This document shows, piece by piece, positions 18,007-57,962 of a stretch of 64,000 nt of DNA; the stretch's first letter is position 1, and every line of letters begins with the position of its first letter. Where the stretch lies: the NCBI GenBank assembly GCA_020632265.1, contig JACKFW010000001.1:465892-529891 (forward strand), in the 5' to 3' direction. The notes beneath the pieces are model-generated. The model had not been told where the DNA came from. It ran no database searches and was given only the letters and a program-made list of their open reading frames with translations. This stretch comes from Pseudomonadales bacterium. Its GTDB lineage: Bacteria > Patescibacteriota > Microgenomatia > UBA1400 > PJMF01. Position numbers and translations under genes: made by a program.

Positions 18007-18096
18007 AACAGGATAATACCCCCTTTATCAAAGTCGATATTAGTTTAATATATGTTGCTTAGTTTATGGTTTAATGTGTCGTTTTAATTTCAAGCT

Positions 18097-18558: not shown

Positions 18559-18598
18559 AAGCTTATATATTTTATTATTAAACAGTTATCTCAAACCA

Positions 18599-18689
18599 GG
18601 TTCTAACTTGGTACACACCTCCACATGTCAGAACTCTAGGTTAGAAATGTGCTAAAATTGGGATAGGTGTAGAGAATTTGATATCTAAT
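18599..18689 (+). repeat. full cassette junction unit (variant-A core plus promoter-like module)
   Basis: ggttctaacttggtacacacctccaca then tgtcagaactctaggttagaaatgtgctaaaattgggataggtgtagagaatttgatatctaattagaacctaat. Confidence 0.7.
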
Positions 18690-18743
18690 TAGAACCTAAT
18701 ATATATTAAATTGCATTAATAATTTTGTATTGTATTATAAGCA

Positions 18744-19013
18744 ATGTTGTATAAAAAAAAAGTTGTTATGTCACAAAAAATATCAAAATCATCATTACAG
18801 ACAAAAATGATTAAGATAATTGTTAAAAAATATGCTTTGGGTTATATAAATTCAATGAAGGCACGTAACCTAATGGCAGAGGTGTTATCAAAGCTTTCTC
18901 ATTCTACAATTGGACAACTTGATTATCACCAAGTTCTATATTTAACAAGAATAGATGCCATTTTTAGTGAGTTAAAAGATTTCTATTTATCAAAAAATAC
19001 AAAAGGGAATTGA
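18744..19013 (+). CDS. hypothetical small protein (cassette 9, first gene)
   Basis: 89 aa. Its stop overlaps the start of the next ORF. Confidence 0.35.
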   Translation: MLYKKKVVMSQKISKSSLQTKMIKIIVKKYALGYINSMKARNLMAEVLSKLSHSTIGQLDYHQVLYLTRIDAIFSELKDFYLSKNTKGN

Positions 19014-20647
19014 TGATGCATGAAAATTGGTCCATCCCGCCAAATGAAAAAATGACCTTCGGAGAAAGAGGAAGACGAATTAAAAGAAAAGTTATTAAAA
19101 CTTTAAATAGGTTTCAAACACTTTTTTGTATAAGAGATAAAACAGTTGCAGAGATTGCTAAAGCAGAAGATGAAAGTTCTAAAAATATTGATCCCATTAA
19201 TCAATTTGCTGTTACTATGATAAGTGCAGAACCAACTGATTGGATTAATATATTGACTAGTTTGAATGATGATGAATCAGTTGATCTAGATAAAACAATA
19301 GTTGCTCCAGAAAAAACTACTCATGAAAAAGTTCCTTTTGGTTATTTACAAATAGTAACTAAATTAGATCAGGAACAAGTTGAAGATGATGATTCTTTCC
19401 CAAGAATTGAAGGTAGTTTAGAACCTCTTTCAACAAAATATGCTGTTCAAGTTGCAGATTCTTCAACAACAAAGATAACAGATAATTTATCACATCATCG
19501 AATGATGATTGCTACACCACGTTCAGGGAGACAACTAAACGAACTACTTGATGCAGAAATTATATATGGTGGCAGAGCTATTTCTACAATAATGATTAAA
19601 GGTACTGGAGTTCCCAATATAGTCAGAGAAACTTGGGTTGATTATGCAGGGCAAGATGACCCATTTTTTTTCACAGAAAAACAGACTGGTGGTGAAACGG
19701 CAACAGGCTTGATTGCTAAAAATGAAATGATGGGACCAGCACTCAAAGAAGATCAAGTAGAAGATGCGCGAAATTCATTAGTTCTTCATAATGCTGGAGT
19801 AAAGGTAAGAATTCCTTTAGGTGGTTGGGAAGTTAAATCATTTGTTATTGCTGGAGAACAAAAAGATATTGCTTGGTTTAAAGAGCATGGATATGATGGA
19901 GAAGTGTTATATCAATCTGCTTGGGGAATGACATGTCCTTTGCGCATTGAAGATATCAATGATATGTTATCAGAAGCTGTTTATGTTAATAATAATCCAA
20001 AACTACTTGATGATTTACTCAAAGAATTACTTGTTTTTGCACAAAAAGATAAATCAAAACCCTATGTAGATCTCTCTAAAAAATGGAAAGATATTTTAGA
20101 TTTAGATAATTTTGAACTTGATGAAGATACCCGAGTACAGCTCTGGACAGATTTTGGCATTGCTCTCTGTGAAACTATGGGCAGTAATTTTGATTCAATG
20201 CATAAAGCTAATTTAAAGCATGGTAATGCTCATGATCAAAATATTTCATTTTTTGGTGAACTATGTGATAACTCAACTGTAAGTGAGGGTCTACTTGTGT
20301 CTGGAGGTGATCAAAAAATTGGTGATGATATTGATAGTTTTGCTGATGGCATGAGAAGATTCAATGATCGGGTATTAGCAATGAGTGGTGTAAATACCTT
20401 TGATGAGTTTGAATTAGTACAGGAAGCACTTGATAAATATAAACAGGCAGTTAGAAAAAACTGGATATCTTATGAAGAATGGGTGAAGACTAGTACTGGG
20501 TTGCTTGTTTCTGATAATGACAACAGAAATAGAGCTGAAAATGAATTAAATGAATATCAGAATGAAGTAGACGAGTATGATATAAGCAGACAAATACTCA
20601 GAAAAACTGGTGGAGAAAGACGATTTCGAATATATGGTGAAGATTAG
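19010..20647 (+). CDS. hypothetical protein (cassette 9, second gene)
   Basis: 545 aa, acidic, soluble, with no motif recognised. Confidence 0.45.
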   Translation: MMMHENWSIPPNEKMTFGERGRRIKRKVIKTLNRFQTLFCIRDKTVAEIAKAEDESSKNIDPINQFAVTMISAEPTDWINILTSLNDDESVDLDKTIVAPEKTTHEKVPFGYLQIVTKLDQEQVEDDDSFPRIEGSLEPLSTKYAVQVADSSTTKITDNLSHHRMMIATPRSGRQLNELLDAEIIYGGRAISTIMIKGTGVPNIVRETWVDYAGQDDPFFFTEKQTGGETATGLIAKNEMMGPALKEDQVEDARNSLVLHNAGVKVRIPLGGWEVKSFVIAGEQKDIAWFKEHGYDGEVLYQSAWGMTCPLRIEDINDMLSEAVYVNNNPKLLDDLLKELLVFAQKDKSKPYVDLSKKWKDILDLDNFELDEDTRVQLWTDFGIALCETMGSNFDSMHKANLKHGNAHDQNISFFGELCDNSTVSEGLLVSGGDQKIGDDIDSFADGMRRFNDRVLAMSGVNTFDEFELVQEALDKYKQAVRKNWISYEEWVKTSTGLLVSDNDNRNRAENELNEYQNEVDEYDISRQILRKTGGERRFRIYGED

Positions 20648-20754
20648 TGTATAAATGTATAAAATGAATGTTTTTATGGTTTAATACAGTTGAAGCATTA
20701 GAGCTTTATTTAGCTCAAGAAAGAAGTATTATCAGTGATCGACTAAGTAAAACA

Positions 20755-20783
20755 GGTTCTAACTTGGTACACACACCTCCGCA
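20755..20783 (+). repeat. variant-A core repeat
   Basis: ggttctaacttggtacacacacctccgca. The listed 61-aa ORF 20668..20853 spans it and is probably spurious. Confidence 0.7.
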
Positions 20784-20871
20784 TATTAAGAGACATATTA
20801 GTGCTTTAGAATTAAATTTGATGTTTCTTTTTAACAATTGTAAGAACGCATAGTTTTTCTATACTAGATAA

Positions 20872-21537
20872 ATGGATAAAGAAACAAAAACACACACTGA
20901 ATTTGGTATAAGATCTCAAGAAAATAAAAGGCTGATAAACCAGCTTCAGCTTCAGAAACTTAGTCCTGATATAGATTTTTTTCCCAAAGTCGTAGGCTTT
21001 AAAGATTTTGATAATTCTCAGGGATATGAAGTTGAACAAATTGTTGGACAAACATTTCAGGAACTCATGAGTAGTACTAGTAGCTCTGATTTTATTAGAC
21101 TTCTTCTTGTTGCAACTGAGCAGCAACAAAAACTTTTCAAAAATTATGGCATTTTAGTAAAAGATAGAAATAAAGATAATTTTATTTTTGGAGTAAAAGA
21201 TGAAAATTCAAATCTAAAAGTATATCAAGTAGATTTAGAATCTATTTATGATTCTGTTACAGATGCCGACTTTCTTGATATAAATGAACACTTATTATCA
21301 AGATCTAGTAACCCAATTAAAATTAGTAATGAAAATAAAACTGGCATAGAAATTGCAGATATATGTGATTCACTTCAAGAAATATTTATTGAATATTTAA
21401 AAAGAAAAAAAAGAACACAAATTGAGCAACAAGTTTATGTTAAATGGAATAAAAGACTTGGGACTATTAGGAGGATAAAAAACTTTGATAAACTAACTAT
21501 ACTTTTTGAAGATTTATTGAGAATTTTTGGAAATTAA
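20872..21537 (+). CDS. hypothetical protein (cassette 10)
   Basis: 221 aa with no motif. Confidence 0.4.
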   Translation: MDKETKTHTEFGIRSQENKRLINQLQLQKLSPDIDFFPKVVGFKDFDNSQGYEVEQIVGQTFQELMSSTSSSDFIRLLLVATEQQQKLFKNYGILVKDRNKDNFIFGVKDENSNLKVYQVDLESIYDSVTDADFLDINEHLLSRSSNPIKISNENKTGIEIADICDSLQEIFIEYLKRKKRTQIEQQVYVKWNKRLGTIRRIKNFDKLTILFEDLLRIFGN

Positions 21538-21600
21538 AAATTTGATAAATTGCTCATATCTGAAAATATGAACTAAAAGCCAACTTTTATTTAACTTAAT

Positions 21601-21632
21601 AAAGTTCCAATTTCATCCCACGCTCCCCCGCA
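21601..21632 (+). repeat. variant-B core repeat
   Basis: aaagttccaatttcatcccacgctcccccgca. Confidence 0.7.
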
Positions 21633-21790
21633 TATACAAAAAAGTCTCCTGAAAGGCGATGTTTTTGTATAATTGGGGTGTGGTTTGGTATGCAAAAAGA
21701 TTGTTCGCACCAGTAAGAAGTGAGCATCTGCGAACTTCCTGCTTAGTGCATGTGAGCTTCCTTAAGTAGATGCAAATTGCAGCGAATCGT

Positions 21791-21810
21791 GAATCCCTTC
21801 ACCTCCGCCA
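21791..21810 (+). repeat. terminal direct repeat (attR-like): exact 20-bp copy of the tRNA-Ser(GGA) 3' end
   Basis: gaatcccttcacctccgcca is identical to 8891-8910. It defines an island of about 12.9 kb downstream of the tRNA. Confidence 0.75.
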
Positions 21811-21819
21811 TCGTGTATG

Positions 21820-22920
21820 AAGAAGCCAAGAGATCTGTTAAATATGCCTGTCAATCGATCATTTTAGTCAATTCTAACCTTTGATATTCTCTTCGCAGTG
21901 CTGGTGCGTTGTGTTTGATGGGGACAAACCACTTCATTGGCTCAATATAGAGTTTCTCGCCTTGATTTTAGGATTTTATAGCCAAAATATCAAGCACCCT
22001 TTTTCGTAGACACGGTTTCTAATTAGTTAGCGTAGAATTTTGCAGGCGGCATTTTAAGTGCCGAATGAATTCTGCTATGGTTGTAGTTGTAAAGTGTGTA
22101 GTGAATTTCTTCGAGAAAATGACCTTCTGATTCGAAACGAGCAAATTCAAGACCTAAATCAGTTTTAAAGTTGTTATAAAATGATTCTTGAAATCCATTT
22201 TCTCAAGGCGAAGACTTGGTACTCATAGAAATAGTAACTCCAAAGTCTTGCACTGATTTTGTGTAATCTTGACTTATGTATTCAGAGCCCTGATCGGTGT
22301 GAATATAGATTGGTTTTTGAAAATCTCTTCTTTTTCTCCATCTGGCTTTTCTTTTATATGGCTTGATGCCAAATAACTGCATACATCTTCGAACTCGCTT
22401 TTTGCCAACATCCATCTCAATTGCAATTCTTCTGGACCCATAACTTGGTTGATTAACCAACACTGACTCCATTTGTTCCCTGAGTAAAGTATCTTTTTGT
22501 TTTTGTAAAAAGATCGTTTTGTATAGCCATTGTCGAGAAATACCAAGTGCTTTTGCAACAAACTTTTTATCTAACTAAAGATGAATCTGAGTTGCTTTTT
22601 TAGCTGTTTGTGTTTTTCTTTTTTTTTGATCTCTCCAACTCGAGTGTGACGACCCCCAAGATCTTTTTTAAATCTTCATTTTCCTTGAGCAACCGTTTAT
22701 ATTCTCGGTAATTGACTTGCTCGGTCACTTGACCTCGCAACCAACTATAAATTGTCTTGTCACTCACACCGTATTGTTTGGAAAGTTCCACTGCTTTCTA
22801 TCCAGAATTCACTTTTGCCAGTATTTCAGACTTCACCTCTTATGCTATTTCTACCATTTTTTTTCCTCTCGTTTACCATATTTTACTTAGAGTCTGTGTA
22901 AACTATAAGGGGAGTAAGTG
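21820..22920 (-). mobile_element. decayed IS3-family insertion sequence (transposase broken into at least 3 frames)
   Basis: The ORFs 22600..22791 (HTH OrfA-like MELSKQYGVSDKTIYSWL...), 22274..22561 and 22203..22472 (DDE core ...IHTDQGSEY...) are fragments, and C-terminal transposase sequence continues down to about 21.85 kb with internal stops. The end sequence gtaaactataaggggagtaag at about 22890 is repeated as solo ends elsewhere. Confidence 0.6.
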
Positions 22921-23124
22921 ACTTTGACGAAAAGCAAATTTTTAAATTAAATTTATAATTAATTTTTCTGATTTGTGTATTATACTAAAATAAATAAATC
23001 AATTTTAATAGTTAATTGTAGTAATTGAAAAATTAATCTTTATTATGGCAATACATCTTTGATATAATTTCTTCTCACAATTAAAGAGGATGCTTGCTCA
23101 TCATATAAGCACAGATAGTAGTAT

Positions 23125-24679
23125 ATGCGAGATATTAAAAGAATATATATATTTTTATTTATTATTAGTATAGCAACTATATTTCTAATCTTCAACAACA
23201 TACAATCAAAAAATATACCCTGGTTTTCTGATAATGCAAGAGATTATTTGGTAGCTAAAAATATTATTAAGCATCATGATTTCAAATATATTGCACCTTT
23301 TGCAGAGTTTCAAGAAAACACTTTAGCTAACAGTGTTTTTTACTATTACTTTCTATCAATCTTTTATTTATTTTCCTTTGATAATGAAAAAATATACTTA
23401 TTACTTTATATGGTCTTTTATGCTAGTACGATATTCATTTTTTCTTATTTACTCGGTCGAATATTTTTAGAAAAAAAAACTTTTTTCCATATTTCCAATT
23501 CTGATTTATTTTACCCCTACTATTTATGCTCACGGCAAGTTTATTTTTCAGCCTAATTTTATTTTTCCTATCTTTCTAGTTTGTCTTTACTTTCTTTTTT
23601 CTGCATTTAAAGAAAAATCAATTAAAAGGCTCTCGCTATCTACATTTTTATTTATAATATGTCTAAATATTCATCTCTCAGTTCTTGTATTAATTCCTTG
23701 GATCATTGTTAATAGTATTTATGTCAGAAGCAATTTTAAAAACGTTCATCCTTTTTGGATGATAGTTCCAGACTTAATATTTATTACTGGTATTTATTTC
23801 TTTTTTCTTAATCAAAAAATTATATCTCAATCAAAAAATTGGTTTGATTTCATAATTATTTTTTTCAAAAATATCTTAAATGGGAAGTCCGCTAATTTTG
23901 ATTTAATAGATAATGCCAAATTCTTAATGGAAGAAATAATGAGTAGTGATTTTCATATTAGAAAATTTCAAATAATCTTTTTTATTTTTGTGTTTATTTT
24001 ATCTATAATAATTTACATTAAAAAAAATAAAAATTACTATACTAATTCTTTGATGCTTGCTTTGGCTACTTACATGATAGTGTTCATCTCATTAACTGAT
24101 CTTAGGAATTTTTATTTTTTTCCTGCATACATTATATTAGTATGTTTTGTGATAATTAATATCTTAAAATTAAATCAAAAAGTAGTAATTTTGGTATTTT
24201 TAATATCAATATTTTTTAATTTTGGTATTATTTTTAATGACTTATCCTACAGGAATCGAGATGAGAACAAAAATAAATATCAATTAACTGCAGAGATAAT
24301 TGATAAAGATCTAGCAACTTTGTCAAAAAATGAGCCACATGCATTTTTAATATATTCTGTAGATGATACTCTAAATTTTTCAAATCCTGTTTATTGGTTA
24401 TATTTAGAAAAAAAACTTAATTATCAAATTGTAGAGAATGGAAATTTTTTTAGATTTAGTTTATTGCCCATAACAAAAAATTCAAACAATTTGTATCTTA
24501 TTTGTGATAACCCAAATACAAATTTTGAAGAACCGCCTGAAAAATATAAATGCTTAGAAAGAATTGAGATGCAAAAAGGAATAAAAAATTATTCTAAATT
24601 ATTTGATCAAAAAAATAACAATTTTTCTATATATAAAATTGATCTTATTGATAGCATGAGCAGATATGAGACTCTCTAA
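23125..24679 (+). pseudogene. frameshifted polytopic membrane glycosyltransferase-like gene (two ORFs 23125..23556 and 23759..24679)
   Basis: Both ORFs are extremely hydrophobic, and hydrophobic coding continues through 23560-23760 in another frame. It resembles the 3833..5491 membrane protein in composition. Confidence 0.35.
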
Positions 24680-24906
24680 AGAAACTATTTTACAATTTAG
24701 AAAACTTATTTTTTTTTAGGTTAAAATACAGAGTTATAAATATTGGTTAGATCATCCTAGAACATATTTCAAAGAGCAATTATTCAATTTAAAGATAAAC
24801 AAAAATATACTTATTACCAGAATTAGGTTATAATTTTATAATTACAGATCAAGAAACTCCCCACAATTGAAAAAAGCTCAAGTAGACAACTTTTTACCGC
24901 TGCAGT

Positions 24907-24937
24907 AAAGTTCCAAGTGCATCCCATACTGCTCGCA
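24907..24937 (+). repeat. degenerate variant-B core repeat
   Basis: aaagttccaagtgcatcccatactgctcgca. Confidence 0.5.
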
Positions 24938-24991
24938 AAATATATAAAAAGACCGATTTGATATTTAAAAAAATAAAGATTAAATTAAGAA

Positions 24992-25453
24992 TTATCTAAT
25001 GTTTTTTTGTGTATTCCGTTCATGATAGTCGTAATCAGCTTTTAATATTGCATCCATTCCATCAGTTCTATCAATTCTTTTTTGTTTTGCATTCAAATTA
25101 TAGTCATCAATTGAGAAATTACTAATTATATCCATGTTTACTAATGTAGTTCCACTTCCAATGACTCCAGCATAAATTTGTTCATCGATTTGTGTTAATA
25201 CCACCATTTTACGAATAGATACAGCTTTGTAAAAATATTGGATTGTTGGCAATTCACCATTTTCTCTGTAAATCATCGCAGATTTACCATTTATAAATTT
25301 AGCTAAAGAATTTGCTTGACCCTCAGTGAGGATTCCACTATCAACTAGGGATTTAATATCTTTTGATTTGCTAATTAACTCAAGATTGTCATTTTCAAGT
25401 GCTTTATTTAATAGGTTTATTGGTGATTCACCATCTATTATTTTTTCAGTCAT
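24992..25453 (-). CDS. hypothetical protein
   Basis: 153 aa with no motif. Confidence 0.4.
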   Translation of the reverse strand: MTEKIIDGESPINLLNKALENDNLELISKSKDIKSLVDSGILTEGQANSLAKFINGKSAMIYRENGELPTIQYFYKAVSIRKMVVLTQIDEQIYAGVIGSGTTLVNMDIISNFSIDDYNLNAKQKRIDRTDGMDAILKADYDYHERNTQKNIR

Positions 25454-25603
25454 AAGTTATATGGTATCACAAAATTTATTGGTTTTATACATAATTAATC
25501 AACTTCTTATTTATAATTCATATTGATTTTGAACAATTAAAGATTAAATATATTACTCATATCAGAAAAAAGGAACTAGCAGTCAACTTTTATTTCATTT
25601 AAT

Positions 25604-25755
25604 AAAGTTCCAACTTCATTCCACGCTCCCCGCATTTGACAGAAAGTGAGCTTTAGCTCAGTTTGTGTCAAATATGAATGGGATGAGAAGTTTATGCCCC
25701 ATCAAGCGAAATATAAAAATATAAATTTGAGCATGACCGGGCTTAAATCCCCCTC
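25604..25755 (+). repeat. module M copy 3 (diverged): variant-B core, hairpin, conserved about 60 bp, then a degenerate tRNA-Ser(CGA) 3'-end 17-mer
   Basis: aaagttccaacttcattccacgctccccgca...tatgaatgggatgagaagtttatgccccatcaagcgaa...aaatttgagcatgaccgggcttaaatccccctccctc aligns with the reverse complement of 54351-54515 and of 57741-57877. Confidence 0.6.
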
Positions 25756-25915: not shown

Positions 25916-26995
25916 CTACGGGCTTGATTGTGACTTTTCACTCTCTCGACCGTCTAAAATCCCATCACCATCTGAGTCCGGATTGATTGGGTCAGTACCA
26001 TGTCCAACTTCATAACCATCTAATAATCCGTCGCCATCTGAGTCCGGATTGAGTGGATTGGTGGGATAATAAAAAGTTTCATCACCATCTAATAATCCGT
26101 CGCCATCTGAGTCCGGACTGAGTGGATGGGTGTGAGCTTGAAAAAATTCAGTCCCATCAGCTGATCCATCACCATCAGTATCTTGATTATTTGGATCAGT
26201 ATGTAGAAGCTTAGTCTCCTCGTAGTCCATCAATCCGTCGCTATCTGAGTCCGGATTGAGTGGATCAGTACCATGTTGTTTAACTTCATCGCCATCTGAT
26301 AATAAGTCACCATCTGAGTCCGGATTGATTGGGTCAGTACCATGTCCAACTTCATCACCATCTAATAATCCGTCGCCATCTGAGTCCGGATTGAGTGGGT
26401 CAGTATGAAAATAATTTTCCTCATCAAAGTTCCACAACCCATCTCGATCTGTATCTGGATGAAGTAATCCAGAAAGATATTGGTTAAAATTTGGCAATTC
26501 TTGAGAAATCAGGCATATACCAAGGGAAGAGCTACCAAGTATGGCTACTAGAAAAAGCATACGCATCCTGTTTCTAAATCTTATTCCCCGCCTTCTCCTT
26601 CTCTCCCTATTTGTTTCCTCAGTAGGTGCTGTAATAGAAATTACTTCTGTCTGAGTAGAATTGCTATTTGGTGGTGGATAAATTTCAACTCTTTCTATAT
26701 CTTCTGGGAATCTCTCTCCTCCATAAATTAATAAAAGAAGTTTTTCTCTAACACCTTGCCGTAGACTTTGAGGAATAGTTTCTAGTGCATTCTCTAGTGA
26801 AGAGCCTAAATTGTGATTAGTTGACCGTCTGTAGTGTCCTGCAGCTGCGGGATTACCATGACAAATAATCAAATCTGCGGCATAATTCCATTCGAGGGAC
26901 CGCTGATTATTTGTAACATGATCGGTTGGTTCCAAAAGAGTTTCGTGATCAGGACTCAAAATTTTAATACGATGATCTAATGAACGTTGTATCAT
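25916..26995 (-). CDS. membrane-anchored protein with thrombospondin type-3-like calcium-binding repeats
   Basis: 359 aa. After an internal TM segment (LFLVAILGSSSLGICLI) it carries at least 8 tandem DP(L/I)NPDSDGDGLLDGDE repeats. Confidence 0.55.
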   Translation of the reverse strand: MIQRSLDHRIKILSPDHETLLEPTDHVTNNQRSLEWNYAADLIICHGNPAAAGHYRRSTNHNLGSSLENALETIPQSLRQGVREKLLLLIYGGERFPEDIERVEIYPPPNSNSTQTEVISITAPTEETNRERRRRRGIRFRNRMRMLFLVAILGSSSLGICLISQELPNFNQYLSGLLHPDTDRDGLWNFDEENYFHTDPLNPDSDGDGLLDGDEVGHGTDPINPDSDGDLLSDGDEVKQHGTDPLNPDSDSDGLMDYEETKLLHTDPNNQDTDGDGSADGTEFFQAHTHPLSPDSDGDGLLDGDETFYYPTNPLNPDSDGDGLLDGYEVGHGTDPINPDSDGDGILDGRESEKSQSSP

Positions 26996-44795: not shown

Positions 44796-46523
44796 TTAGC
44801 CATAAACAATCTTCTCTAGCGCTTCTTCTTTGCTGAGGACTACTGATTCCTGAGATTGGCGCGCTTTATACTCCACTCTTCTTTCATTTCGAGGCGAAAC
44901 AACAAGGCGGTTTGGCATTCCTAATAAATCTGCATCGGCAAACTTACGACCAGCAGACTCTGAACGATCATCCCAGAGGACTTCTACATTATTATTGATT
45001 AAATAATCATAGACTTCTTGTGCCACCTCTTCTGCTCCATTGAGGGATATGAGATGGACGGCAAATGGGGCAATTGTTTTGGGCCAAATAATACCGGCAT
45101 CATCGTGATGTTTTTCCACAATTGTAGCCATAGTTCTGCCCAAGCCAATACCGTAGCAACCCATGTAATATGGTTTAGCTTTGCCATCAGAGTCAATAAA
45201 TGTGGCGTTTTTCATTAAGTTTGAGTAATGATATCCAAGTTGGAAGATATTGCCAACTTCAATACCTCGTTCTTCTCTAAGCACACTGCTCCCGTCCGGG
45301 CTGAGGAAGCCATCTTGTGCCAATGCTACGTCAGCTTCTATCTCATGGGTAAAATCACGACCATAGTTGACATTAATTGAGTCGGTAGTTTCCTCTTTTT
45401 GACCGCCAATAAAGTTAGTGACAGTTTTAAGTGAGTAGTCAGCTACGTAGATGACGCGACAATCTCGATTTTCGCTAGCCGCTTTTCGAGGGGTTACAAA
45501 CTTGTGTCCCCAACTGTGCACATATCCTGGTTGGGTGCCAATAGCAGTAAGATCTTCTACGGTAGCTTCTTCAAGCTGGCCAACTAAATTTAGTACTCTT
45601 TCTAACTTAATTTTGTTGACCTCTAAGTCTCCGCGAATTGTCACAATTATGATATCACCCTGCTCTGAACGATAAACGACATTTTTAAGGAAAAACTGGG
45701 CGGGCTTCTGATAGTTTTTTTGATTATCTTCCATGGTTTTAACCCATTTTGGCTGTTCAATGAATTCTATTTTAGCTGGAGTTTCTTCTGGATTGATGGG
45801 CTTGAGTTGAAAAGTTGCAATGTCCTCATGAGAAACGTATTTGTTATCTTCAGAAACAAAGAATCGACCTTCACCCTTTGGGTGAACTACTTGAAACTCG
45901 TGACAATACTCACCGCCAATGTAGCCATTGTCAGCCTCGACTTTGAGTGTTTTTAACCCCAATCGCTCAAAAATACGGTGGTAAACCTCAGACATTTTTT
46001 GGTACTCGAGTTTAAAGTTTTCTTCATTAGGGTGGAATGAGTAAGCATCTTTCATGGTGAACTCGCGAACTCTGAGTAAGCCGCCTCGTGCTCGTGCTTC
46101 ATCTCGAAACTTGGTAGAAAATTGATAAATGTTGAACGGCAAATCTTTGTAAGTGTGCTGGAATTTGCGAACGACATCTACCATCATTTCTTCAGCAGTG
46201 CCACCCAAGGCGAATTTACCACCACGACGATCGGTAACCTGCATCAGCTCGAAACCAGTGGTATTAGTGCGGTTTGTTTCTTGCCATAACTCAAGAGGGT
46301 GTAATACAGGAGTAATCATTTCTTGTGCACCCGCTGCATTCATTTCCTCGGCAATAATCGCTTTAATCTTTTCATGAACTCTCCAGCCAAGGGGAAGGAA
46401 AAAGTATCTGCCGGCAACTGACTCAGCAATGAAACCACCGCGAGTTAAATATTGATGGCTGATCAGATCTGAGCCACCAATTTTTGTTTTGCTAGTTTTA
46501 CCAAAGAGCTGTGAATATTTCAT
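44796..46523 (-). CDS. proS: proline--tRNA ligase (bacterial type with editing domain)
   Basis: 575 aa with N-terminal class II aaRS motifs (FIAESVAGRYFFLPLGWRV) and a C-terminal anticodon-binding region. Confidence 0.9.
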   Translation of the reverse strand: MKYSQLFGKTSKTKIGGSDLISHQYLTRGGFIAESVAGRYFFLPLGWRVHEKIKAIIAEEMNAAGAQEMITPVLHPLELWQETNRTNTTGFELMQVTDRRGGKFALGGTAEEMMVDVVRKFQHTYKDLPFNIYQFSTKFRDEARARGGLLRVREFTMKDAYSFHPNEENFKLEYQKMSEVYHRIFERLGLKTLKVEADNGYIGGEYCHEFQVVHPKGEGRFFVSEDNKYVSHEDIATFQLKPINPEETPAKIEFIEQPKWVKTMEDNQKNYQKPAQFFLKNVVYRSEQGDIIIVTIRGDLEVNKIKLERVLNLVGQLEEATVEDLTAIGTQPGYVHSWGHKFVTPRKAASENRDCRVIYVADYSLKTVTNFIGGQKEETTDSINVNYGRDFTHEIEADVALAQDGFLSPDGSSVLREERGIEVGNIFQLGYHYSNLMKNATFIDSDGKAKPYYMGCYGIGLGRTMATIVEKHHDDAGIIWPKTIAPFAVHLISLNGAEEVAQEVYDYLINNNVEVLWDDRSESAGRKFADADLLGMPNRLVVSPRNERRVEYKARQSQESVVLSKEEALEKIVYG

Positions 46524-46566: not shown

Positions 46567-46789
46567 CAATCATACTACTGATTGTGACAAGGACAAAGCA
46601 TTAATTCGTATTATCACCTTGTTTTTCTGAGCAAATTACCAGACTCAGACTTAGAAACTATTGATAAATACCATAATCGAATTCTAGATTGCGGACAGCG
46701 ACCGAATGTTTTAGAGTAGTTGTTATGACAAATGCCGAGCCGTAGCAGCCTTTTTCTTTTCTGAAGCTATTGGTTAGGAGCCGACGTAG

Positions 46790-46910
46790 CTAAAAGTTAA
46801 ACAAATTCAAATTTTATCTCTCGTGCTATTCCTACCATTTTTCCTCATCATGTTTAACGTATTTTACTTAAAAACTGTGCAAACTATAAGCATAGCATGT
46901 GAGTCTGGGA
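46790..46910. mobile_element. solo IS3-family end remnant
   Basis: ctattcctaccatttttcctcatcatgtttaacgtattttacttaaaaactgtgcaaactataagcatagcatg is homologous to 22820-22920. Confidence 0.5.
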
Positions 46911-47541: not shown

Positions 47542-50500
47542 TTACACCTGATAATTTTTTGCTGCCATCTCTAACAGTCTATCTGAAATAAACCTAAATG
47601 GCGTTGCCTTTGAGTCGGTGTGTGTTTGCATATAAACCTTGCGTTCTTCTGGCATTAATACCATTCTACGAATTGCCGCCAGTGCTTGATTTTCAGTCAT
47701 TTCACCAAATCTAACCTGGTTCCATAGGCCTGGTCTGACATGTTCAATGAAAGCTTCAACTAGTGGAGTTGCATTTCTGCCCCGCTCTGAATAAAAACTA
47801 ATTGCTTCAATTATGTGAGTCAACTCTTCTATATAGGTGTCAACAAACTCTTTAAATGGTTTTTCATCTAAAGATTGAGATAGTTTAATTCGTAAACTGC
47901 TTTTATCTGCAAAGCTTCTATCTCCGGTGATGATATCAATTGGTACAATTATGCCAGTCGCACGCTGGAACAAGTCTATTCTCCTGTATAACTCATAAAG
48001 AGATTCGTTTGCTGCCACAGGTGTTTCATCAAATTTCATCATGGTCTCTACCATCTCGCGGGAAAGAGGCGTACCGCTAGAAGCCACGTTACGAAAGTCA
48101 TCTATAATTGATTGGCGTATTTCATTCAAGCTTCTGCCATCAGGTAGTTTAATGTTCATTAGTAAATGCTCTAAGTTGTATACCGATTCATCAGTGTACT
48201 TACCCATCTCAATTGCATCTGCAGTTTGTGTGCTCCCTGCTAATAGTTGATCAAATAACTCAGCTTCTGTTTTTATGTCATAATCAGGTCTGTAATATTG
48301 ATTATATAGTGCATCATTTGCTAGCATCGGAACATACCAGGATCCTTTTCTATATCGTTGGGCTAATTCGCGGTACACAGTAGCTGCCACAGTTTTCTTT
48401 AACCTATCAATTTCTTGTTTTGAAACTGCTAATCCAGCCCTAACTCTGGTGGGAGGTAGCCAGGTAGGAACATCCACCTGCAAAACCAAACCCTGATTTT
48501 CCAAGAGTTGAACAATTGTCGGATGAATATAGTCAGTTAATCCAAAATTTCGATCTTCTACTTCACCTAGTGACATATTTCTTCTTCGAACATCTGCCCA
48601 TGGATAGTCTTGTCTTTGAGCTAGAGCAACTCTTAGAGTGCCAGATCTTTGCTTCCCAGTAGCTGTTTCACCAGAGTAGCTAATCTCACCAATGACTTCT
48701 TGCTGTGGAGGCTCTAAATTTTCGGATTGATATGATATAGGCATCAGCTCTGAAATTGGACGAGCATAATGTTCAACAGCATTGCGAACAATCTTTTCTT
48801 GCCATTCTGGGGGAAGATCTTGAGTCAATTTTACTCTGACAGTGCTTCCTGGATACTTGTCCGAGGGATGTTGCTCATCAGCCAATATCACAATATCAGT
48901 TACCATGTCATTTTCTCTTACAATACCAAGGCGAGTGATTGATTCCACTCCATTTTTTACTGCAACTACATCAATTTCATCCGCAACCAAAGCCACAGTT
49001 CCAAATCCCCAACCAATGCCCCCTTCAACAAGTGGGTTTGCTGCTTTCTCAAGATCTCTAGTATTGAATTGGAGTAATTTGTTTTTGATTACATCTATGT
49101 CCATACCAATCCCTTGATCTGAAATTTCAAAAACTCCATGCGTAATGTTGTCACCTTCCATTTCTCGATACATTCTCATATCAATCTGTCCGCCTTCAAC
49201 CTCAAAACCGTTCATAATGACTGCGTCACGAGCATTTTGTAGCAGTTCACGTACAAAAGTGTCCCATCGCACCGATTGTGAGTGAACAGCTTTCATAACT
49301 GACTCGGTATCTGCTTCAACCACTCTTGTAGTATCAAATGGATCAGCACCTCGTTTTTTACGAGCAATCATTTGACCTACAGTAACTCCACTCAGCCGAC
49401 CTTGTGATAATTCTTGTTTTGCTTCTTCTGCAAGTACTCGAACATCACTCGATAAAAAGTCAATCATTTCATCTGTTTGTCGGCTTAAGCTTCCAGGATT
49501 ATCAACTATGTCTATATACATCTGATTGAATAATGTTCTAAGTGAAGTTTCACTCATCATCATTTGAACATTTTTAAGCAAAGATTCTTGATCACTAGCT
49601 CCATGTTTAATGACTGTCGCAACTATTTTGGCAAAAGCATACTCTTCAAAAGGATCTTCTGGTACTGTAAACTGGCCTCTCTTTGCTAGTTTTGATATTT
49701 GCTCTGCCAATTCTGGAGTTAGAACTTCCTCATACAAAAGCAGTGGAATAATGCGGATTGTGCATAAGCTATCTGCAAGCTCAGGATTTTCTCTGGATAT
49801 TTTTGTCAATTGATAAAGCATTTGTATTTCATCAAACTCTCCACCAAGTACGTTTCGCAGATCGCGAACCCTGTCTGCAACCATAGCAACCGACTGAGCA
49901 TTTTCGTGAATAGGCAATAGGCCAGGTAGATATGCCCCTTGAGGTAAGAAGAAGTCTCTTGCAAATGTACAACCAGCTTGTTCAAGTTGAGAAACTGCTT
50001 GTTGTACATGTTGAGGCGGGGATTGTAGATTCTCGTTCAATGATGGATTTTTCACTAAAGTTGTAATGGCGAGGTTTGCCATTTCTGGATTCTTGAGTCT
50101 GTATTTCATCAGGTTTGCCATAACATTTTGAAATAAAGTTTGAACTTGTGGATCAGAAAAATCCCAGCTTGGGTTTTTGCAGCAAGCGATAAAGGTTTCT
50201 CCAACCAATGTGGTAGCCCAATTATTTTGTTGTTCATGAGAAGCTAAGCGTTCTTCGACTTTGTCAATAACAAATGATTGGGAAATTTCGACGATCTGCT
50301 CCAATATTTGACTGTAATTTCTCACTAAATTCACACTTACAGGAATGTTAGGATGAGAGAAAAAATCCTTAATAGCAATTGGAATTGAAGCTGAAAGCAC
50401 TATAGACTTTGATTGTTGATGTTTTTTTGTGTAGTCAAGACCTTCAAAAATTGCATTGGTCAATTCGATTAGTACTTCTTCATCAACATTTGTACTTTCT

Positions 50501-53500
50501 GGGTTTGAAAAGATTGATAGTAATTTATATGTAGTATTTCCTGGATATCCAACTTGAATTTCAGGGTTATTTCTATCTTTAATCTGTTGAATCAAATTAA
50601 CCATAGTCTCACTGTCAAAATGTGCTAGATTAGGAGAATTGAATATGTTTACTCCATTGTCTCTGAAGAAGAACCTCACAAAATTTTTAGAATAACTAGC
50701 AAGCCAGTAATTAAGGGATTCATTTCCCAGGACGAGTGCGCCAGAATTAATTAAAAACTGTTCATAGACTAAACCTAAATGATGTATGTAACCTGATTCC
50801 AAAAGTTGTGGAGACAGTCTAATTAGTTCATCATGTATTTGTGAATAAATGTTTGCCCAATCATCCCCAATGTTTGGGTTGGTTGCCAAACCTTCGAATG
50901 ATGCAACTAGGCAAGTTGGAAATTGTTGGTCAATAATACCAGATTTATGAAGATAATCCCAATAACTCTTAATCCTTTCTTTAGCCCAATTAGTAACATC
51001 GGGATTATCAAGTTGAAATTTTTGACTAGCAGCATTAAATATATTAATATATTTTAAGTGCCTGAAAATATCTATTTTCCAAAGATTTTTACCAGACTTT
51101 TTTATTCTATGGTGTTGGGCAGTTTCAAAATCAAGGAGTAGCTGAGAGTTTTTTAAACACTGTTCAACTTTTTTTCTTACCCAATCATCTTCAAAATTAA
51201 GTTTTTTTGTTAGAAAATATTCGGATAATTCAGCATAGCCATATGACATTAGGTCATCTGACTCCTCTTTAATTAATCTAATTAATTCTGTTCTTTGAGT
51301 CTCAAAAACATTATCGATCAATCCCCGCACCCACGGATCAGAAAGATCTAACCATTCCTTCTTAACCAGTTTCGTTCCCAATCTAATTAACCGTTCTCCT
51401 TTAAATGTTTCAAAGGCATGGGTTATGTGCTCTCGAATCCAAGGGTTATCTACTGTGTCTATGCCTCGAAGCAATTCCTGATAGCCTTCAAATAGACCTT
51501 GCTGAGTATTATCAGGTAGCTTTTGACCATCCCTCATCAATGTTTTTTCTAACCTAATGTATCTGTCTAACATCTCTTGTCCAAATTTAGTCTCCCAGAA
51601 AACTGAAGATATGTTATCCGCACCGAATTTTTCTTCACGTTTATCGTACATCTGAAAATAAAGATCCATATATTTGACAACTAAATCTCGACACCATTGA
51701 TGATCGAAGTCCCAAGGTAAGCCAAATATCAGCATTGGTATAGATTGAGATAACAACTGGCGCTTGATTTCATCCAATTCGTTTTTTGATAGATGACGAC
51801 CGCTTCGATCAGTACCTGTATCTAAGGCTAGTAAGTCTTGTCGAATATTTTGTTGAATGCTGTGTAGCAATTCTCTTAGAGTAGTTCGTTCCATTTCCGA
51901 TCTATCATGGTGATCTCTACGTCCATTTTCTCTCATCATCACATGCATTTCTATCACGTCCATATATCTTGAACCGCTCATAAACTCATCCATGGTTTGG
52001 TCCCAATCAAAACTTTTTTCAATATCTCGAGAGGATTCGGCAGATTCTTCAATCTGTTGAGATGCAGACCTCTGCATTGGTACAAATTCTCCCGCTTTGA
52101 TTGAGGCAAAACCCTTAAATGAAGCTGGTTGAGGATAGCCAACGTCAATGCCATTTATCAATGCATTAAGGATGTCTATGCCTTCACTAGTTTGAATAAG
52201 TCTGTCATATACAGCACGATCTAAAAATAGGACTCCTTCATGTTCAAAATGCAGCGGATGGTATTGGTCGTCATTCTTAAATTTGGCTAGATAAAGCTGA
52301 TAAACTCTGGAACCACGCCAACGATCTGACATTTCACCGATTGATCTTGGAGAAAAATCAAACAAGGCTTCGTCAACATGAACAAAACCCTCTGCATCTA
52401 GATGAGAAAAGTCATCAGTGTTTGGAACAAACTGCGCTCCTTGTTTTTTTTCAAGTATCTCTAAATCACCTTTAATTAGTGGCCTTATTCTCCGTGATAC
52501 CATCGATACAAACATTTTGTAATCTTCTGACTTAGTGTTTCCAATATCTTTAGCAATGGCTCTAAGGACAGCTGTAAGCAGATTAGCATACCTTATTCTG
52601 TCAATTGGTTCTTCAATAGCTTTGATTTGGTCAATGATAACTTCTAGATTATATTCATATTCCTTATCTTTAAGTATTCGAGTCCAACTCTCGTCCAATG
52701 TAACAGTGTCCAGCGAAATGACTGCTTTATCTGCGGGAAAGCTACCCCTTATTCTGCCTTTAATTTGATATTGCTCTACTGTAATTCCACTAACTTGAAT
52801 ACTGAATGTTGGTTCAACAGAATTTGAAGTTGTTTCTCCTACAAGGATTTGAGCATTACTTTTCCTATCTCGACGATTAAATCTTTTTGTACCACGTCCA
52901 GGAACTAAAAATTTTTCGTATAAAACTTCTGTAGCTGTTTTTTTAGGTTGAGTAAGACCTGAGCCTCGGTCTAATACAATATAACCCTCGTCAGAGAGAT
53001 AGATATAAATATTTCCTCTTGATTTTCGTGATTCGTTATTATTAATACCTCGCAACTTATCTGCTTCTTTATTTATTCGCATTTTTCTGCCATCTGCAGT
53101 GGCGCACCAAATGTTAAAGCCTTGTGAATCAGCAAAACGCCATTTGACTTCAGCAAGCAATTTATCAGCATTCATTGGAGCATCGACTCTAATAACAGTT
53201 CCATGATTCAAGTTTCCTTCTAGCCCAAAGGGTTCGAGGACCAATTTTGCCTGTCTTTGCAATTCTTGGTCAGGATTTTGATCAGGAGCAAATAAGAACT
53301 CACCGCCACTTGCGCGAACATATCCACCAGTTGTCTCTCCAGCTTGATTTTTGCTCAGTACACTAAAGCGAGCATCTCTACGTTTAGTGAGCCACTGCCA
53401 TGTTGAAACAATTCCTTTCCCAAATCGTCCAGTTGTATCTTCTAGGTGAGCATCGCGGGCATTTGTCACAGCTTCAACTACTGTTTGTTCTAGGATAGCC

Positions 53501-54117
53501 TGTTGAAAAACATGACTAGCTTCATCAAAGGGTGTGTATTCCAGTCGTCGACGTTTCAAGATATCACCATCAACTCGACCTTCTCTTTGCCATTTATCAT
53601 ATTCCGCAGCATCTCCATGCCCGCCCTCAACATAACCAATTATTTGTTTAATAGGGTAATAGGTTTGGCTCTTTGGAAGTTGACGAGCTGTTTCAACAAG
53701 TTTTCTTCGTTGAGCGAAGGGTAGCACTCCCACCAATTCTTTTAGAGTTCTTGTATCATTCTTATCTGTGGATTTAATAAGTTTTTCAATGATTCTTAAA
53801 CTTTTTAGTAAAAATGATCTTACAAATGCCTCACCAAGTACGTCGATTATCTCCTCACCTGTTGGTTGTTGATCTTTAGTGGCTTCAGTCCTTTGGCGAT
53901 AAAGAGAGAAAAGTTGCTGATTTTCAGGGTCCAGTAAATCATGGCCAACAATTAAAACGAGATCATCATTACTAGTAATGTTTTCTATGAGTCTCTGTTT
54001 ATCAAACAAAAAGCCATGATAATAATCGACAAGTCTAGGAAGCGCATCTTCTAGTTTTGTGTTTCGCTCGGCTGACCTTGTGGATGGTAAGTATTCATTA
54101 TTTGGATTATATGACAC
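47542..54117 (-). CDS. giant (2191 aa) cytoplasmic protein with GHKL/Hsp90-like ATPase domain
   Basis: An uninterrupted 6.6-kb ORF. Residues about 1600-1800 (nt about 48700-49300) carry Bergerat-fold boxes: N-box RELLQNARDAV, G1 DQGIGMD and G2 GGIGWGFGTVAL. There is no signal peptide or TM segment. Confidence 0.7.
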   Translation of the reverse strand: MSYNPNNEYLPSTRSAERNTKLEDALPRLVDYYHGFLFDKQRLIENITSNDDLVLIVGHDLLDPENQQLFSLYRQRTEATKDQQPTGEEIIDVLGEAFVRSFLLKSLRIIEKLIKSTDKNDTRTLKELVGVLPFAQRRKLVETARQLPKSQTYYPIKQIIGYVEGGHGDAAEYDKWQREGRVDGDILKRRRLEYTPFDEASHVFQQAILEQTVVEAVTNARDAHLEDTTGRFGKGIVSTWQWLTKRRDARFSVLSKNQAGETTGGYVRASGGEFLFAPDQNPDQELQRQAKLVLEPFGLEGNLNHGTVIRVDAPMNADKLLAEVKWRFADSQGFNIWCATADGRKMRINKEADKLRGINNNESRKSRGNIYIYLSDEGYIVLDRGSGLTQPKKTATEVLYEKFLVPGRGTKRFNRRDRKSNAQILVGETTSNSVEPTFSIQVSGITVEQYQIKGRIRGSFPADKAVISLDTVTLDESWTRILKDKEYEYNLEVIIDQIKAIEEPIDRIRYANLLTAVLRAIAKDIGNTKSEDYKMFVSMVSRRIRPLIKGDLEILEKKQGAQFVPNTDDFSHLDAEGFVHVDEALFDFSPRSIGEMSDRWRGSRVYQLYLAKFKNDDQYHPLHFEHEGVLFLDRAVYDRLIQTSEGIDILNALINGIDVGYPQPASFKGFASIKAGEFVPMQRSASQQIEESAESSRDIEKSFDWDQTMDEFMSGSRYMDVIEMHVMMRENGRRDHHDRSEMERTTLRELLHSIQQNIRQDLLALDTGTDRSGRHLSKNELDEIKRQLLSQSIPMLIFGLPWDFDHQWCRDLVVKYMDLYFQMYDKREEKFGADNISSVFWETKFGQEMLDRYIRLEKTLMRDGQKLPDNTQQGLFEGYQELLRGIDTVDNPWIREHITHAFETFKGERLIRLGTKLVKKEWLDLSDPWVRGLIDNVFETQRTELIRLIKEESDDLMSYGYAELSEYFLTKKLNFEDDWVRKKVEQCLKNSQLLLDFETAQHHRIKKSGKNLWKIDIFRHLKYINIFNAASQKFQLDNPDVTNWAKERIKSYWDYLHKSGIIDQQFPTCLVASFEGLATNPNIGDDWANIYSQIHDELIRLSPQLLESGYIHHLGLVYEQFLINSGALVLGNESLNYWLASYSKNFVRFFFRDNGVNIFNSPNLAHFDSETMVNLIQQIKDRNNPEIQVGYPGNTTYKLLSIFSNPESTNVDEEVLIELTNAIFEGLDYTKKHQQSKSIVLSASIPIAIKDFFSHPNIPVSVNLVRNYSQILEQIVEISQSFVIDKVEERLASHEQQNNWATTLVGETFIACCKNPSWDFSDPQVQTLFQNVMANLMKYRLKNPEMANLAITTLVKNPSLNENLQSPPQHVQQAVSQLEQAGCTFARDFFLPQGAYLPGLLPIHENAQSVAMVADRVRDLRNVLGGEFDEIQMLYQLTKISRENPELADSLCTIRIIPLLLYEEVLTPELAEQISKLAKRGQFTVPEDPFEEYAFAKIVATVIKHGASDQESLLKNVQMMMSETSLRTLFNQMYIDIVDNPGSLSRQTDEMIDFLSSDVRVLAEEAKQELSQGRLSGVTVGQMIARKKRGADPFDTTRVVEADTESVMKAVHSQSVRWDTFVRELLQNARDAVIMNGFEVEGGQIDMRMYREMEGDNITHGVFEISDQGIGMDIDVIKNKLLQFNTRDLEKAANPLVEGGIGWGFGTVALVADEIDVVAVKNGVESITRLGIVRENDMVTDIVILADEQHPSDKYPGSTVRVKLTQDLPPEWQEKIVRNAVEHYARPISELMPISYQSENLEPPQQEVIGEISYSGETATGKQRSGTLRVALAQRQDYPWADVRRRNMSLGEVEDRNFGLTDYIHPTIVQLLENQGLVLQVDVPTWLPPTRVRAGLAVSKQEIDRLKKTVAATVYRELAQRYRKGSWYVPMLANDALYNQYYRPDYDIKTEAELFDQLLAGSTQTADAIEMGKYTDESVYNLEHLLMNIKLPDGRSLNEIRQSIIDDFRNVASSGTPLSREMVETMMKFDETPVAANESLYELYRRIDLFQRATGIIVPIDIITGDRSFADKSSLRIKLSQSLDEKPFKEFVDTYIEELTHIIEAISFYSERGRNATPLVEAFIEHVRPGLWNQVRFGEMTENQALAAIRRMVLMPEERKVYMQTHTDSKATPFRFISDRLLEMAAKNYQV

Positions 54118-54350: not shown

Positions 54351-54515
54351 ATTTCCTCTCTTAGAGGACATAACACTGCGTAGGGAGGGGGATTTACCCT
54401 CGTCATGCTCAAATTTATATCTGCTTTGCGAATTCGCTTGATCGGGCATAAACTTTCTCATCCCCACTCATATCTGTAAAAAAATAGGCTTACAGCCTAC
54501 TTTTTTACAGATGCG
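54351..54515 (-). repeat. module M copy 2: tRNA-Ser(CGA) 3'-end 17-mer, conserved about 118 bp with hairpin, then a variant-B core in place of the tRNA
   Basis: 54351-54486 is nearly identical to 57741-57875. It is then followed (reverse complement) by aaagttccaatttcatcccatgctccccgca where the genuine tRNA end sits in copy 1. The listed ORF 54258..54467 is probably spurious. Confidence 0.7.
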
Positions 54516-54658
54516 GGGAGCATGGGATGAAATTGGAACTTTTTTCTCTCAATAAACATAAGCCTATATATTTTATATTGAGTTTTTAGAAACAGCGAAA
54601 TCTTTCAGATTCATAACTAATATAAAATAACAAATTTCAATTAAAAATAGTATTAATA

Positions 54659-57680: not shown

Positions 57681-57740
57681 ACATAGATCACCAACCCATT
57701 CAACCATATTAGACGGGTCTGACATAACTTTTCAACTATT

Positions 57741-57875
57741 GCGGAGGGAGGGGGATTTACCCTCGTCATGCTCAAATTTATATCTGCTTTGCGAATTCGC
57801 TTGATCGGGCATAAACTTTCTCATCCCCACTCATATCTGTAAAAAAATAGGCTTACAGCCTACTTTTTTACAGAC
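57741..57875 (-). repeat. module M copy 1 immediately downstream of tRNA-Ser(CGA), ending in a 17-bp direct copy of the tRNA 3' end
   Basis: Reading 5' to 3' on the minus strand, the tRNA 3' end ...ccccctccctccgc is followed by gtctgtaaaaaagtaggctgtaagcctattttttt (hairpin), then about 80 bp, then aaatccccctccctccgc (57741-57758). Confidence 0.7.
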
Positions 57876-57876
57876 G

Positions 57877-57962
57877 CGGAGGGAGGGGGATTCGAACCCC
57901 CGTGAGTAAAATACTCCCAAGCTTTTCGAGAGCTGGCCGTTAAACCACTCCGACATCCCTCC
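57877..57962 (-). tRNA. tRNA-Ser (anticodon CGA)
   Basis: Acceptor GGAGGGA/TCCCTCC, anticodon loop CTCGAAA on a 4-5 bp stem, long variable arm, and T-arm GGGGGTTCGAATCCCCC. Confidence 0.6.

Follow-up and report, generated by a model that had tools for sequence, protein, structure and literature searches.

A giant protein that very probably joins two Hsp90-type ATPase modules to a zincin-like end

The window analysed here, a 64,000-nucleotide (nt) stretch of contig JACKFW010000001.1, carries on its minus strand a gene for a protein of 2191 residues that is currently annotated as 'hypothetical protein', its relatives being annotated as 'ATP-binding protein, partial'. An earlier, sequence-only reading of the window had described the product as a cytoplasmic giant with one recognisable domain, a Bergerat-fold ATPase of the GHKL class near residues 1600-1800. 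The locus thus raises the question of how this protein is built and what such a protein might do. We find that it very probably consists of two Hsp90-type ATPase modules with variable repeats between them and a fused zincin-like end.

The claim that the gene is one uninterrupted 2191-residue open reading frame (ORF) was borne out, on the minus strand and with a GTG start:

47542-54117, minus strand: whole gene, 2191 codons plus stop, GTG start; identical in two assemblies, with homologues P0001 and P0002

Stop codons are expected at ≈6-7% per random codon in this AT-rich DNA (32-38% G+C), so that an open frame of 2191 codons (6.6 kb) is far beyond chance. The identical protein is encoded in the Logan assembly of SRR12358675 and is deposited at NCBI as MCB9813267.1 ('hypothetical protein H6772_02560'), where its contig is 1,082,363 bp long. 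Moreover, there are full-length homologues, P0001 (2167 aa, 70% identity; contig L002) and P0002 (2130 aa, 35% identity; contig L001). Codon comparison with the P0001 gene on L002 gave a ratio of nonsynonymous to synonymous substitution rates (dN/dS) of 0.14 over the whole gene, 0.05-0.08 in the two modules and the C-terminal domain (0.083 in the latter), and 0.34 in the central part (residues 900-1400), where all ratios are only rough because dS is 1.0-2.0, near saturation. We conclude that the giant ORF is a real gene under purifying selection. The description of the product as cytoplasmic is reasonable, because the best Kyte-Doolittle 19-residue window in the whole protein reaches only 1.29, and no hydrophobic stretch suited to a membrane helix or signal peptide was found. 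The protein is acidic throughout, with a net charge of about -65 (-17 for the C-terminal ATPase module alone).

We next consider this C-terminal ATPase unit, called module 2, which comprises a GHKL domain and a middle domain (residues ≈1600-1960) and has the following features:

48748-49320, minus strand: GHKL (Bergerat) ATP-binding domain of module 2, Hsp90-type, residues 1600-1790 (profile, AlphaFold2 [AF2] and Foldseek evidence)
49222-49251, minus strand: N-box RELLQNARDA, residues 1623-1632; R1623, E1624, Q1627, N1628 and D1631 invariant in nine members
49099-49119, minus strand: G1 box DQGIGMD, residues 1667-1673; D1667, G1671 and M1672 invariant in nine members
49000-49023, minus strand: G2 box GGIGWGFG, residues 1699-1706; G1699, G1702 and G1704 invariant in nine members
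48238-48747, minus strand: middle/transducer-like domain, residues 1791-1960 (Foldseek matches to N-terminal plus middle [N+M] TRAP1 structures, conserved columns)
48439-48453, minus strand: PTRVR loop, residues 1889-1893, candidate counterpart of the catalytic Arg loop; R1891 and R1893 invariant in six members

The three motifs named in the sequence-only reading are all present at these residues, and the boxes ExxxNxxD, DxGxG and GxxGxG occur in the canonical order N-box, G1, G2. Searched as a single sequence, residues 1620-1790 gave only sub-threshold matches to HATPase_c, HSP90-family models and the sacsin ATP-binding model (Pfam, NCBIfam); the Pfam HATPase_c match of the giant protein alone (E 5.7e-5, 24 bits) lies below the 26.4-bit cut-off, and homologues P0004 and P0005 exceed the cut-off of HATPase_c_3. 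The family profile of module 2 matched the N-domains of TRAP1, HtpG, Hsp82 and Grp94 in the PDB at E 2e-15, and all 60 best PDB matches shown belong to the Hsp90 family. In this profile alignment, the lid between G1 and G2 is ≈9 residues shorter than the lid of TRAP1. Likewise, when the AF2 model of residues 1560-2191 (mean predicted local distance difference test score [pLDDT] 79.8) was compared by Foldseek, full-length and N+M Hsp90/TRAP1 structures ranked first (E 1e-13), and TRAP1 N+M constructs aligned across 380-470 columns (TMt 0.46-0.60). MutL, GyrB and MORC2 came next, at E 1e-10 to 1e-9, with Hsp90/TRAP1 ≈1000-fold better. Thus, the GHKL assignment of module 2, as placed in the sequence-only reading, holds at the level of both profile and fold. 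In Hsp90, the catalytic Arg loop of the middle domain sits between a strand and a long helix. The PTRVR loop has the same placement in module 2 and, judged by eye, may be the equivalent of the Hsp90 R380 loop.

This domain turned out not to be the only recognisable one, as had been claimed: aligned homologues reveal a C-terminal zincin-like motif, considered below, and a second GHKL plus transducer module, module 1, lies at residues ≈195-690:

52048-53535, minus strand: module 1, GHKL ATPase fold plus transducer/middle-like domain plus helices, residues 195-690
53452-53475, minus strand: N-box EAVTNARD (E215, N219, D222); E215 and N219 invariant in six distant members
53413-53430, minus strand: G2-like box GRFGKG, residues 230-235; G230, R231, F232, G233 and G235 invariant
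52957-52971, minus strand: G1 box DRGSG, residues 383-387, after the G2-like box; D383, G385 and G387 invariant
52672-52698, minus strand: loop LDESWTRIL, residues 474-482; E476 invariant

The boxes of module 1 run N-box, G2-like box, sheet strands and G1, instead of the canonical N-box, G1, G2. GRFGKG aligns to IGQFGVGF of TRAP1, and the module 1 profile matches the Hsp90 G2-box region at E 2.6e-4, with a second segment that matches earlier Hsp90 residues and is therefore out of order. Using hhalign, the late G1 segment of module 1 matched the G1 segment of module 2 at E 9e-6. Because this segment, homologous to the G1 of module 2, comes after the G2 box, module 1 has its Bergerat motifs rearranged in the manner of a permutation; to our knowledge, no Bergerat fold with a changed order of its boxes has been described before. 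The canonical order is retained in the first module of the relative P0045. AF2 models were made for module 1 and for residues 1560-2191; in the former (pLDDT 72.8), Foldseek placed HtpG and HSP90 N-M structures first (E 7e-4). The ATP-binding boxes of both modules are invariant across members that share only 17-26% identity. The two modules are linked only by profile methods, and BLASTP of the N-terminal against the C-terminal half gave nothing significant. The LDESWTRIL loop, as read by eye, may be the counterpart of the catalytic-Arg loop of Hsp90 ('LNLSRE'). Residue 478 of this loop (52684-52686) is W in the giant protein and R in P0001 and P0002 ('LDESRTRIL'), and R480 beside it is common to all three proteins.

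Following the middle domain of module 2, the AF2 model shows a helical stretch and then the putative zincin-like domain:

47545-48000, minus strand: C-terminal zincin-like domain (candidate), residues 2040-2191 (AF2 secondary structure, motif alignment, dN/dS 0.083)
47806-47829, minus strand: EELTHIIE, residues 2097-2104; EExxHxxE in the giant protein, P0001 and P0002
47617-47628, minus strand: QTHT, residues 2164-2167; T2165 and H2166 conserved, in a low-confidence loop of the model

Five relatives (P0004, P0005, P0008, P0012 and P0045) contain HExxHxxE, followed downstream by T/S-H in four (all but P0045). The giant protein, P0001 and P0002 depart from the HExxH signature of zincins and have EELTH in its place. 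E2104 and T2165-H2166 are conserved, and conservation of the latter pair makes H2166 a candidate third metal ligand. In the AF2 model, three short strands precede the motif helix, as in small zincins. We infer a zincin-like domain from this short motif and the predicted strand-strand-strand-helix; the assignment stays at that strength because the isolated domain gave no significant sequence match in Pfam, NCBIfam or the PDB. Sub-threshold matches of single members (PF13699, E 0.11; TIGR04549, E 0.013; TIGR04338, E 0.096) were set aside, as were the top PDB matches, which were to the oestrogen receptor and spurious. The sequence-only reading had found no partner nuclease or effector. This stands for a nuclease, of which none was found, and has to be revised for an effector, in that the homologues carry the C-terminal HExxH domain in cis.

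Two further segments complete the chain:

53758-54117, minus strand: N-terminal leader, residues 1-120, containing EYLPSTRSAERNTKLE, conserved in the three closest members only
49441-52047, minus strand: central region, residues 691-1559, variable and of low conservation, dN/dS 0.34 for residues 900-1400

No Pfam or NCBIfam domain was found in the leader. The central region (≈870 residues) contains ≈8-9 loose repeats that start x-[D/N]-P/D-(W) and are putatively helical.

The family to which the protein belongs is extremely rare and unnamed. When the C-terminal 790 residues were searched exhaustively with HMMER in a set of 1.84 billion representative proteins, ≈8 related clusters were returned, with five proteins at E <= 1e-10; the remaining matches were generic GHKL proteins. 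Each family cluster consists of one or two sequences, and the family includes homologues of 1898-2196 aa. The overall plan also recurs in three weaker relatives (P0008, 2083 aa; P0012, 1340 aa; P0045, 2056 aa). Two clusters carry organism names, an Elusimicrobiota metagenome-assembled genome (MAG) and a Candidatus Caldarchaeum MAG ('ATP-binding protein, partial'). Word-indexed searches with the nine-member alignment recovered only the two close homologues again, and those with the module 1 alignment recovered nothing. The nine-member alignment was too divergent to yield any search pattern, and scans with peptide patterns found no family member in GTDB representative genomes, IMG/VR viral contigs or JGI/ENA metagenome contigs, an absence that is weak evidence because the scans rest on two short peptide patterns each. 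Twelve matches in one scan of JGI/ENA metagenome contigs proved to be generic GHKL domains, not members of the family. No family member occurs near the prolyl-tRNA synthetase (ProRS) gene, the next gene downstream of the giant gene in the window, in the genomes of 80 relatives (Patescibacteria and others), and near ProRS in these genomes none of the neighbours of the giant gene except ProRS itself was found, so that there is no synteny.

Among relatives' loci with flanking sequence, no partner gene is common to the neighbourhoods. Upstream of P0002 on L001 are genes for an XRE helix-turn-helix regulator and a small membrane protein, and a GIY-YIG gene is also close by. An orphan ORF of 1537 aa (L001 8457-13070) starts 28 nt after the P0002 gene and is probably co-transcribed with it; it was rejected as a conserved partner, having no counterpart in the window and no Pfam or PHROGs match. 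P0008 interrupts a haem operon (hemB, P0008, hemD/hemC) and has DUF2283 genes on its flanks, and P0045 contains additional HExxH motifs as well as membrane helices at its C-terminus. The window's array repeat, described below, has a copy on L002 (7-57) at a distance of 2.2 kb from P0001, and an IS3 element (L002 388-1486) lies between the two. Because it carries this repeat, L002 probably comes from a related organism. Co-occurrence of homologues with the arrays, a check proposed in the sequence-only reading, was thus found for the one close relative with flanking sequence and not for the distant ones, whose contigs are mostly short. The window itself has a degraded IS3-family copy at 21993-22857 (minus strand) without an intact ORF, and the pieces translated from it share 54-78% identity with orfA/orfB of the L002 IS3 element beside P0001, which are intact.

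The setting of the gene in the window is defined by the ProRS gene on one side and by a tRNA-Ser repeat array on the other:

44796-46523, minus strand: ProRS gene (proS), next gene downstream of the giant gene
46586-46857, minus strand: full-length but weak match to a T-box leader (RF00230; 19.2 bits, E 0.035-0.09), directly upstream of proS
54377-54545: last copy of the array repeat, ≈260 nt upstream of the giant-gene start codon; includes a tRNA-Ser pseudo 3' end
57876-57962, minus strand: tRNA-Ser(cga)

ProRS is 67-73% identical to ProRS proteins of Microgenomates and other Patescibacteria MAGs, and this affinity therefore places the window in the candidate phyla radiation, in a bacterium whose genome measures ≈1.1 Mb. 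We regard the label 'Pseudomonadales bacterium' given at NCBI as doubtful; several of the best ProRS matches are also labelled 'uncultured Pseudomonadales'. The stretch at 46586-46857 shows AGAGA, GAUGA, T-box-like 'AAGGUGAUAAUACGA...UUUGUCC' and a terminator hairpin, and is probably a diverged T-box riboswitch of proS. The 'solo IS end' (a lone insertion-sequence end) that had been placed at 46.8 kb falls in this stretch and is not supported.

By contrast, the boundary of a second array that had been put at 54.35 kb is confirmed by the repeat copy at 54377-54545. A direct repeat of 152 nt, 95% identical between 54377-54528 and 57740-57891, is made up of the 3'-terminal 16 nt of tRNA-Ser(cga), the terminator hairpin of this tRNA and a further pseudo 3' end of it. 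The ≈3.2 kb between the two copies contain small ORFs of 263 and 140 aa and a third, truncated and PhzF-like, of 222 aa, an arrangement that looks like serial integration at tRNA-Ser(cga). On the ProRS side of the giant gene (46.5-47.5 kb), no copy of the array repeat that could mark a cassette boundary was detected by nhmmer; an 8-nt match to 'TCCGCAAT' seen there by eye could arise by chance and was discarded. Third-position G+C (GC3) is 0.27 in the giant gene, 0.17-0.24 in most other window genes and 0.375 in ProRS, and base composition is equivocal as evidence for transfer of the giant gene. In composition, ProRS departs from the other genes at least as much as the giant gene does (GC3 0.375 compared to 0.17-0.27 elsewhere in the window). 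The view that the setting is rich in mobile elements survives insofar as the tRNA-Ser array adjoins the gene, which looks accessory and horizontally moving, but the supposed IS end drops out of it.

Elsewhere, the window has at 8825-25640 a tRNA-Ser(gga) (8825-8910), the gene of a large serine recombinase that adjoins it (8899-10362, minus strand) and, after this gene, an array. The array contains at least seven repeats resembling a tRNA 3' half ('GTTCCAATTTCATCCCACGCTCTCCGCA') with small ORFs between them, and this repeat also occurs at 54507-54546 (minus strand), 60390 and 62009. At 25916-26995 (minus strand), bacterial TSP3 repeats (Pfam E 4e-36) make up an ORF of 359 aa, and the DNA at 25965-26459 repeats with a period of 69 nt.

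Taken further, the architecture suggests an ATP-gated, Hsp90/sacsin-like double clamp that acts on proteins, bears a zincin-type effector and is encoded by a mobile gene of accessory or conflict type, a tentative reading that we place a little short of an even chance. The GHKL ATPases studied so far all act by ATP-dependent pairing of their N-domains. Each unit of the giant protein would bind ATP through a complete set of Bergerat motifs, in rearranged order in module 1, and since GHKL ATPases work as ATP-closed dimers, the two units would pair, in cis or between chains, and close the clamp. The ≈870-residue, fast-evolving and putatively helical repeat region between the units would form the arc of the clamp and hold the partner. 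This partner would more likely be a protein than a nucleic acid, because module 2 has Hsp90 affinity and the composition is acidic. The C-terminal zincin-type domain would then cut or hold the bound partner. The gene itself, rare and with the behaviour of an accessory gene that moves horizontally, would most likely serve in inter-genomic conflict or defence through a logic of sensor, NTPase switch and effector; this role is favoured by the patchy distribution, the mobile-DNA context, the fast-evolving middle and the precedent of Shedu type I-D (PMC12137116). The analysis shows the folds and motifs of the domains, how rare the family is, that it is under purifying selection and where the gene lies; we infer that the protein hydrolyses ATP, pairs its modules, acts on a protein and has peptidase activity, and what it does for the cell.

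We consider it unlikely that the protein goes beyond this and represents an undescribed class of machine, a single-chain pseudo-dimeric clamp in which a rearranged and a canonical Bergerat domain are paired in cis around a hypervariable arc of repeats. The arc would recognise a foreign protein, and closure driven by ATP would hand this target to a metalloprotease-type domain. If true, the protein would be a GHKL-powered counterpart of AAA+ proteases or STAND/Avs sensors and, among prokaryotes, an analogue of the sacsin body plan or perhaps its remote origin.

Several points weigh against the reading as a clamp with an effector in conflict or defence. The zincin assignment of the C-terminal domain is without significant profile support, and peptidase activity may be lost or changed, because the first His of the motif is Glu here. 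The structure models were built from alignments of 6-9 sequences only, and the neighbourhood context rests on a handful of loci. The giant protein has no match in PADLOC-DB 2.0 (zero families at E <= 1) or in PHROGs, and neither relatives in viral contigs, scanned with two short peptide patterns, nor co-occurrence evidence for defence was found.

These points have to be set beside those that bear on other explanations. The closeness of module 2 to true Hsp90 chaperones would equally suit an accessory proteostasis factor, a sacsin/Hsp90-like super-chaperone or possibly a chaperone-protease for the cell's own proteins, and so would the acidic, soluble character of the protein, its strongly purifying selection and its repeated Hsp90 N+M units, which parallel sacsin, described as a chaperone (PMC9880540, PMC3710099). 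However, related genomes should then share the gene, and it is absent near ProRS in the 80 genomes and, by scans with two peptide patterns, from GTDB representatives; moreover, it is scattered across unrelated phyla beside mobile DNA, and its central region evolves fast. We therefore regard this explanation as rather unlikely. The same affinity of module 2 speaks against the nucleic-acid-targeting function of MORC or MutL kind that the sequence-only reading had entertained, in which a MORC/MutL/GyrB-like clamp, driven by ATP to dimerise, would trap or compact nucleic acid for restriction or defence. The 60 best PDB matches shown for module 2 are all of the Hsp90 family, Foldseek favours Hsp90 N+M structures by about three orders of magnitude, nuclease, DNA-binding, CW and MutL C-terminal domains were not found with Pfam and NCBIfam, and there is no PADLOC match. 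Together with the net charge of both the whole protein and module 2, these results make a DNA clamp improbable.

An explanation in terms of a secreted or injected effector or toxin, used by an episymbiotic Patescibacterium against its host or competitors and harmful through the C-terminal metallopeptidase, draws on the giant size, the sporadic distribution and a C-terminal catalytic-type domain as in polymorphic toxins (PMC3482391). It would also fit the N-terminal peptide conserved in the closest clade, the extra HExxH motifs and C-terminal membrane helices of P0045, and the weak match of one family member to PF13699 (eCIS_core). That match is not significant, though, and the giant protein lacks both a signal peptide and membrane segments. 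None of the loci has genes for a secretion system or for immunity close by, and two ATPase modules are atypical of delivered toxins. The organisms of the relatives, moreover, are presumably free-living, which also counts against a toxin, and we give this explanation a slender chance. Finally, a GTG start, the lack of partner genes and the sub-threshold Pfam scores of the giant protein alone might be expected of a decaying, non-functional relic or an assembly artefact. This possibility is hardly credible and is largely refuted by the frame that stays intact over 6.6 kb of AT-rich DNA, by the recovery of the same protein from two assemblies, by homologues of similar length and by the whole-gene dN/dS. 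We thus return to the ATP-gated clamp with a zincin-type effector as the preferred, if tentative, reading.

In the GHKL ATPases as they are known, single modules dimerise obligately, and multi-unit Hsp90-like chains have so far been considered chiefly in the case of sacsin, a eukaryotic protein. Two such units in a prokaryotic protein would provide a model, small and amenable to experiment, of the cooperation between tandem Hsp90-like modules, and with its predicted effector the protein would combine a GHKL switch and a protease-type domain in a new way. That 0.6% of a genome of ≈1.1 Mb goes to one gene under strong purifying selection implies that the gene truly adds to fitness, perhaps in contests against phages, mobile elements or host cells. 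Even if its function is ordinary, the annotation can be corrected from 'hypothetical protein'.

Compared with known systems, module 2 shares with the Hsp90 family (HtpG, TRAP1, Hsp82, Grp94) the Bergerat and middle domains with complete boxes. However, the giant protein scores far below the cut-offs of the HtpG and HSP90 equivalog models NF010683 (25.6 bits against 455) and NF003555 (16.1 against 371), Pfam reports no HSP90 family in it, and the C-terminal dimerisation domain of Hsp90 was not recognised. Hsp90 has one unit in ≈620-700 aa, whereas the giant protein has two units in 2191 aa, a shorter lid, repeats and a zincin-like domain. MORC, MutL, GyrB-ParE, topoisomerase VI-B and SMCHD1 rank below Hsp90 for module 2, and their accessory domains are absent here. 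The Shedu type I-D protein VcSduA has an N-terminal GHKL ATPase and a clamp-like middle, which are proposed to control a C-terminal effector (PMC12137116), and likewise follows a single-protein plan of GHKL plus C-terminal effector. Its DUF4263 / PD-(D/E)xK nuclease was not found in the giant protein (Pfam, PADLOC), which differs in its candidate zincin-like effector, two GHKL units and far greater size. With minimal HExxH zincin metallopeptidases, five distant members of the family share the HExxH helix after a small sheet, whereas the clade of the giant protein reads EExxH.

Sacsin is likewise giant and soluble, with several Hsp90-like N+M units per chain; its repeated units (SRR) have a short lid and a candidate catalytic Arg each (PMC9880540). 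Sacsin-type modules have been linked to conflict and apoptosis systems by Aravind and co-workers (PMC8195603, PMC3710099). The likeness is one of plan and not of orthology: the giant protein scores 22.8 bits with the sacsin ATP-binding model NF047352, against a cut-off of 50, and none of the UBL, DnaJ and HEPN domains of sacsin was detected in it (Pfam, NCBIfam). We conclude that Hsp90 and sacsin are the closest likenesses of the giant protein, which nevertheless belongs to neither family.

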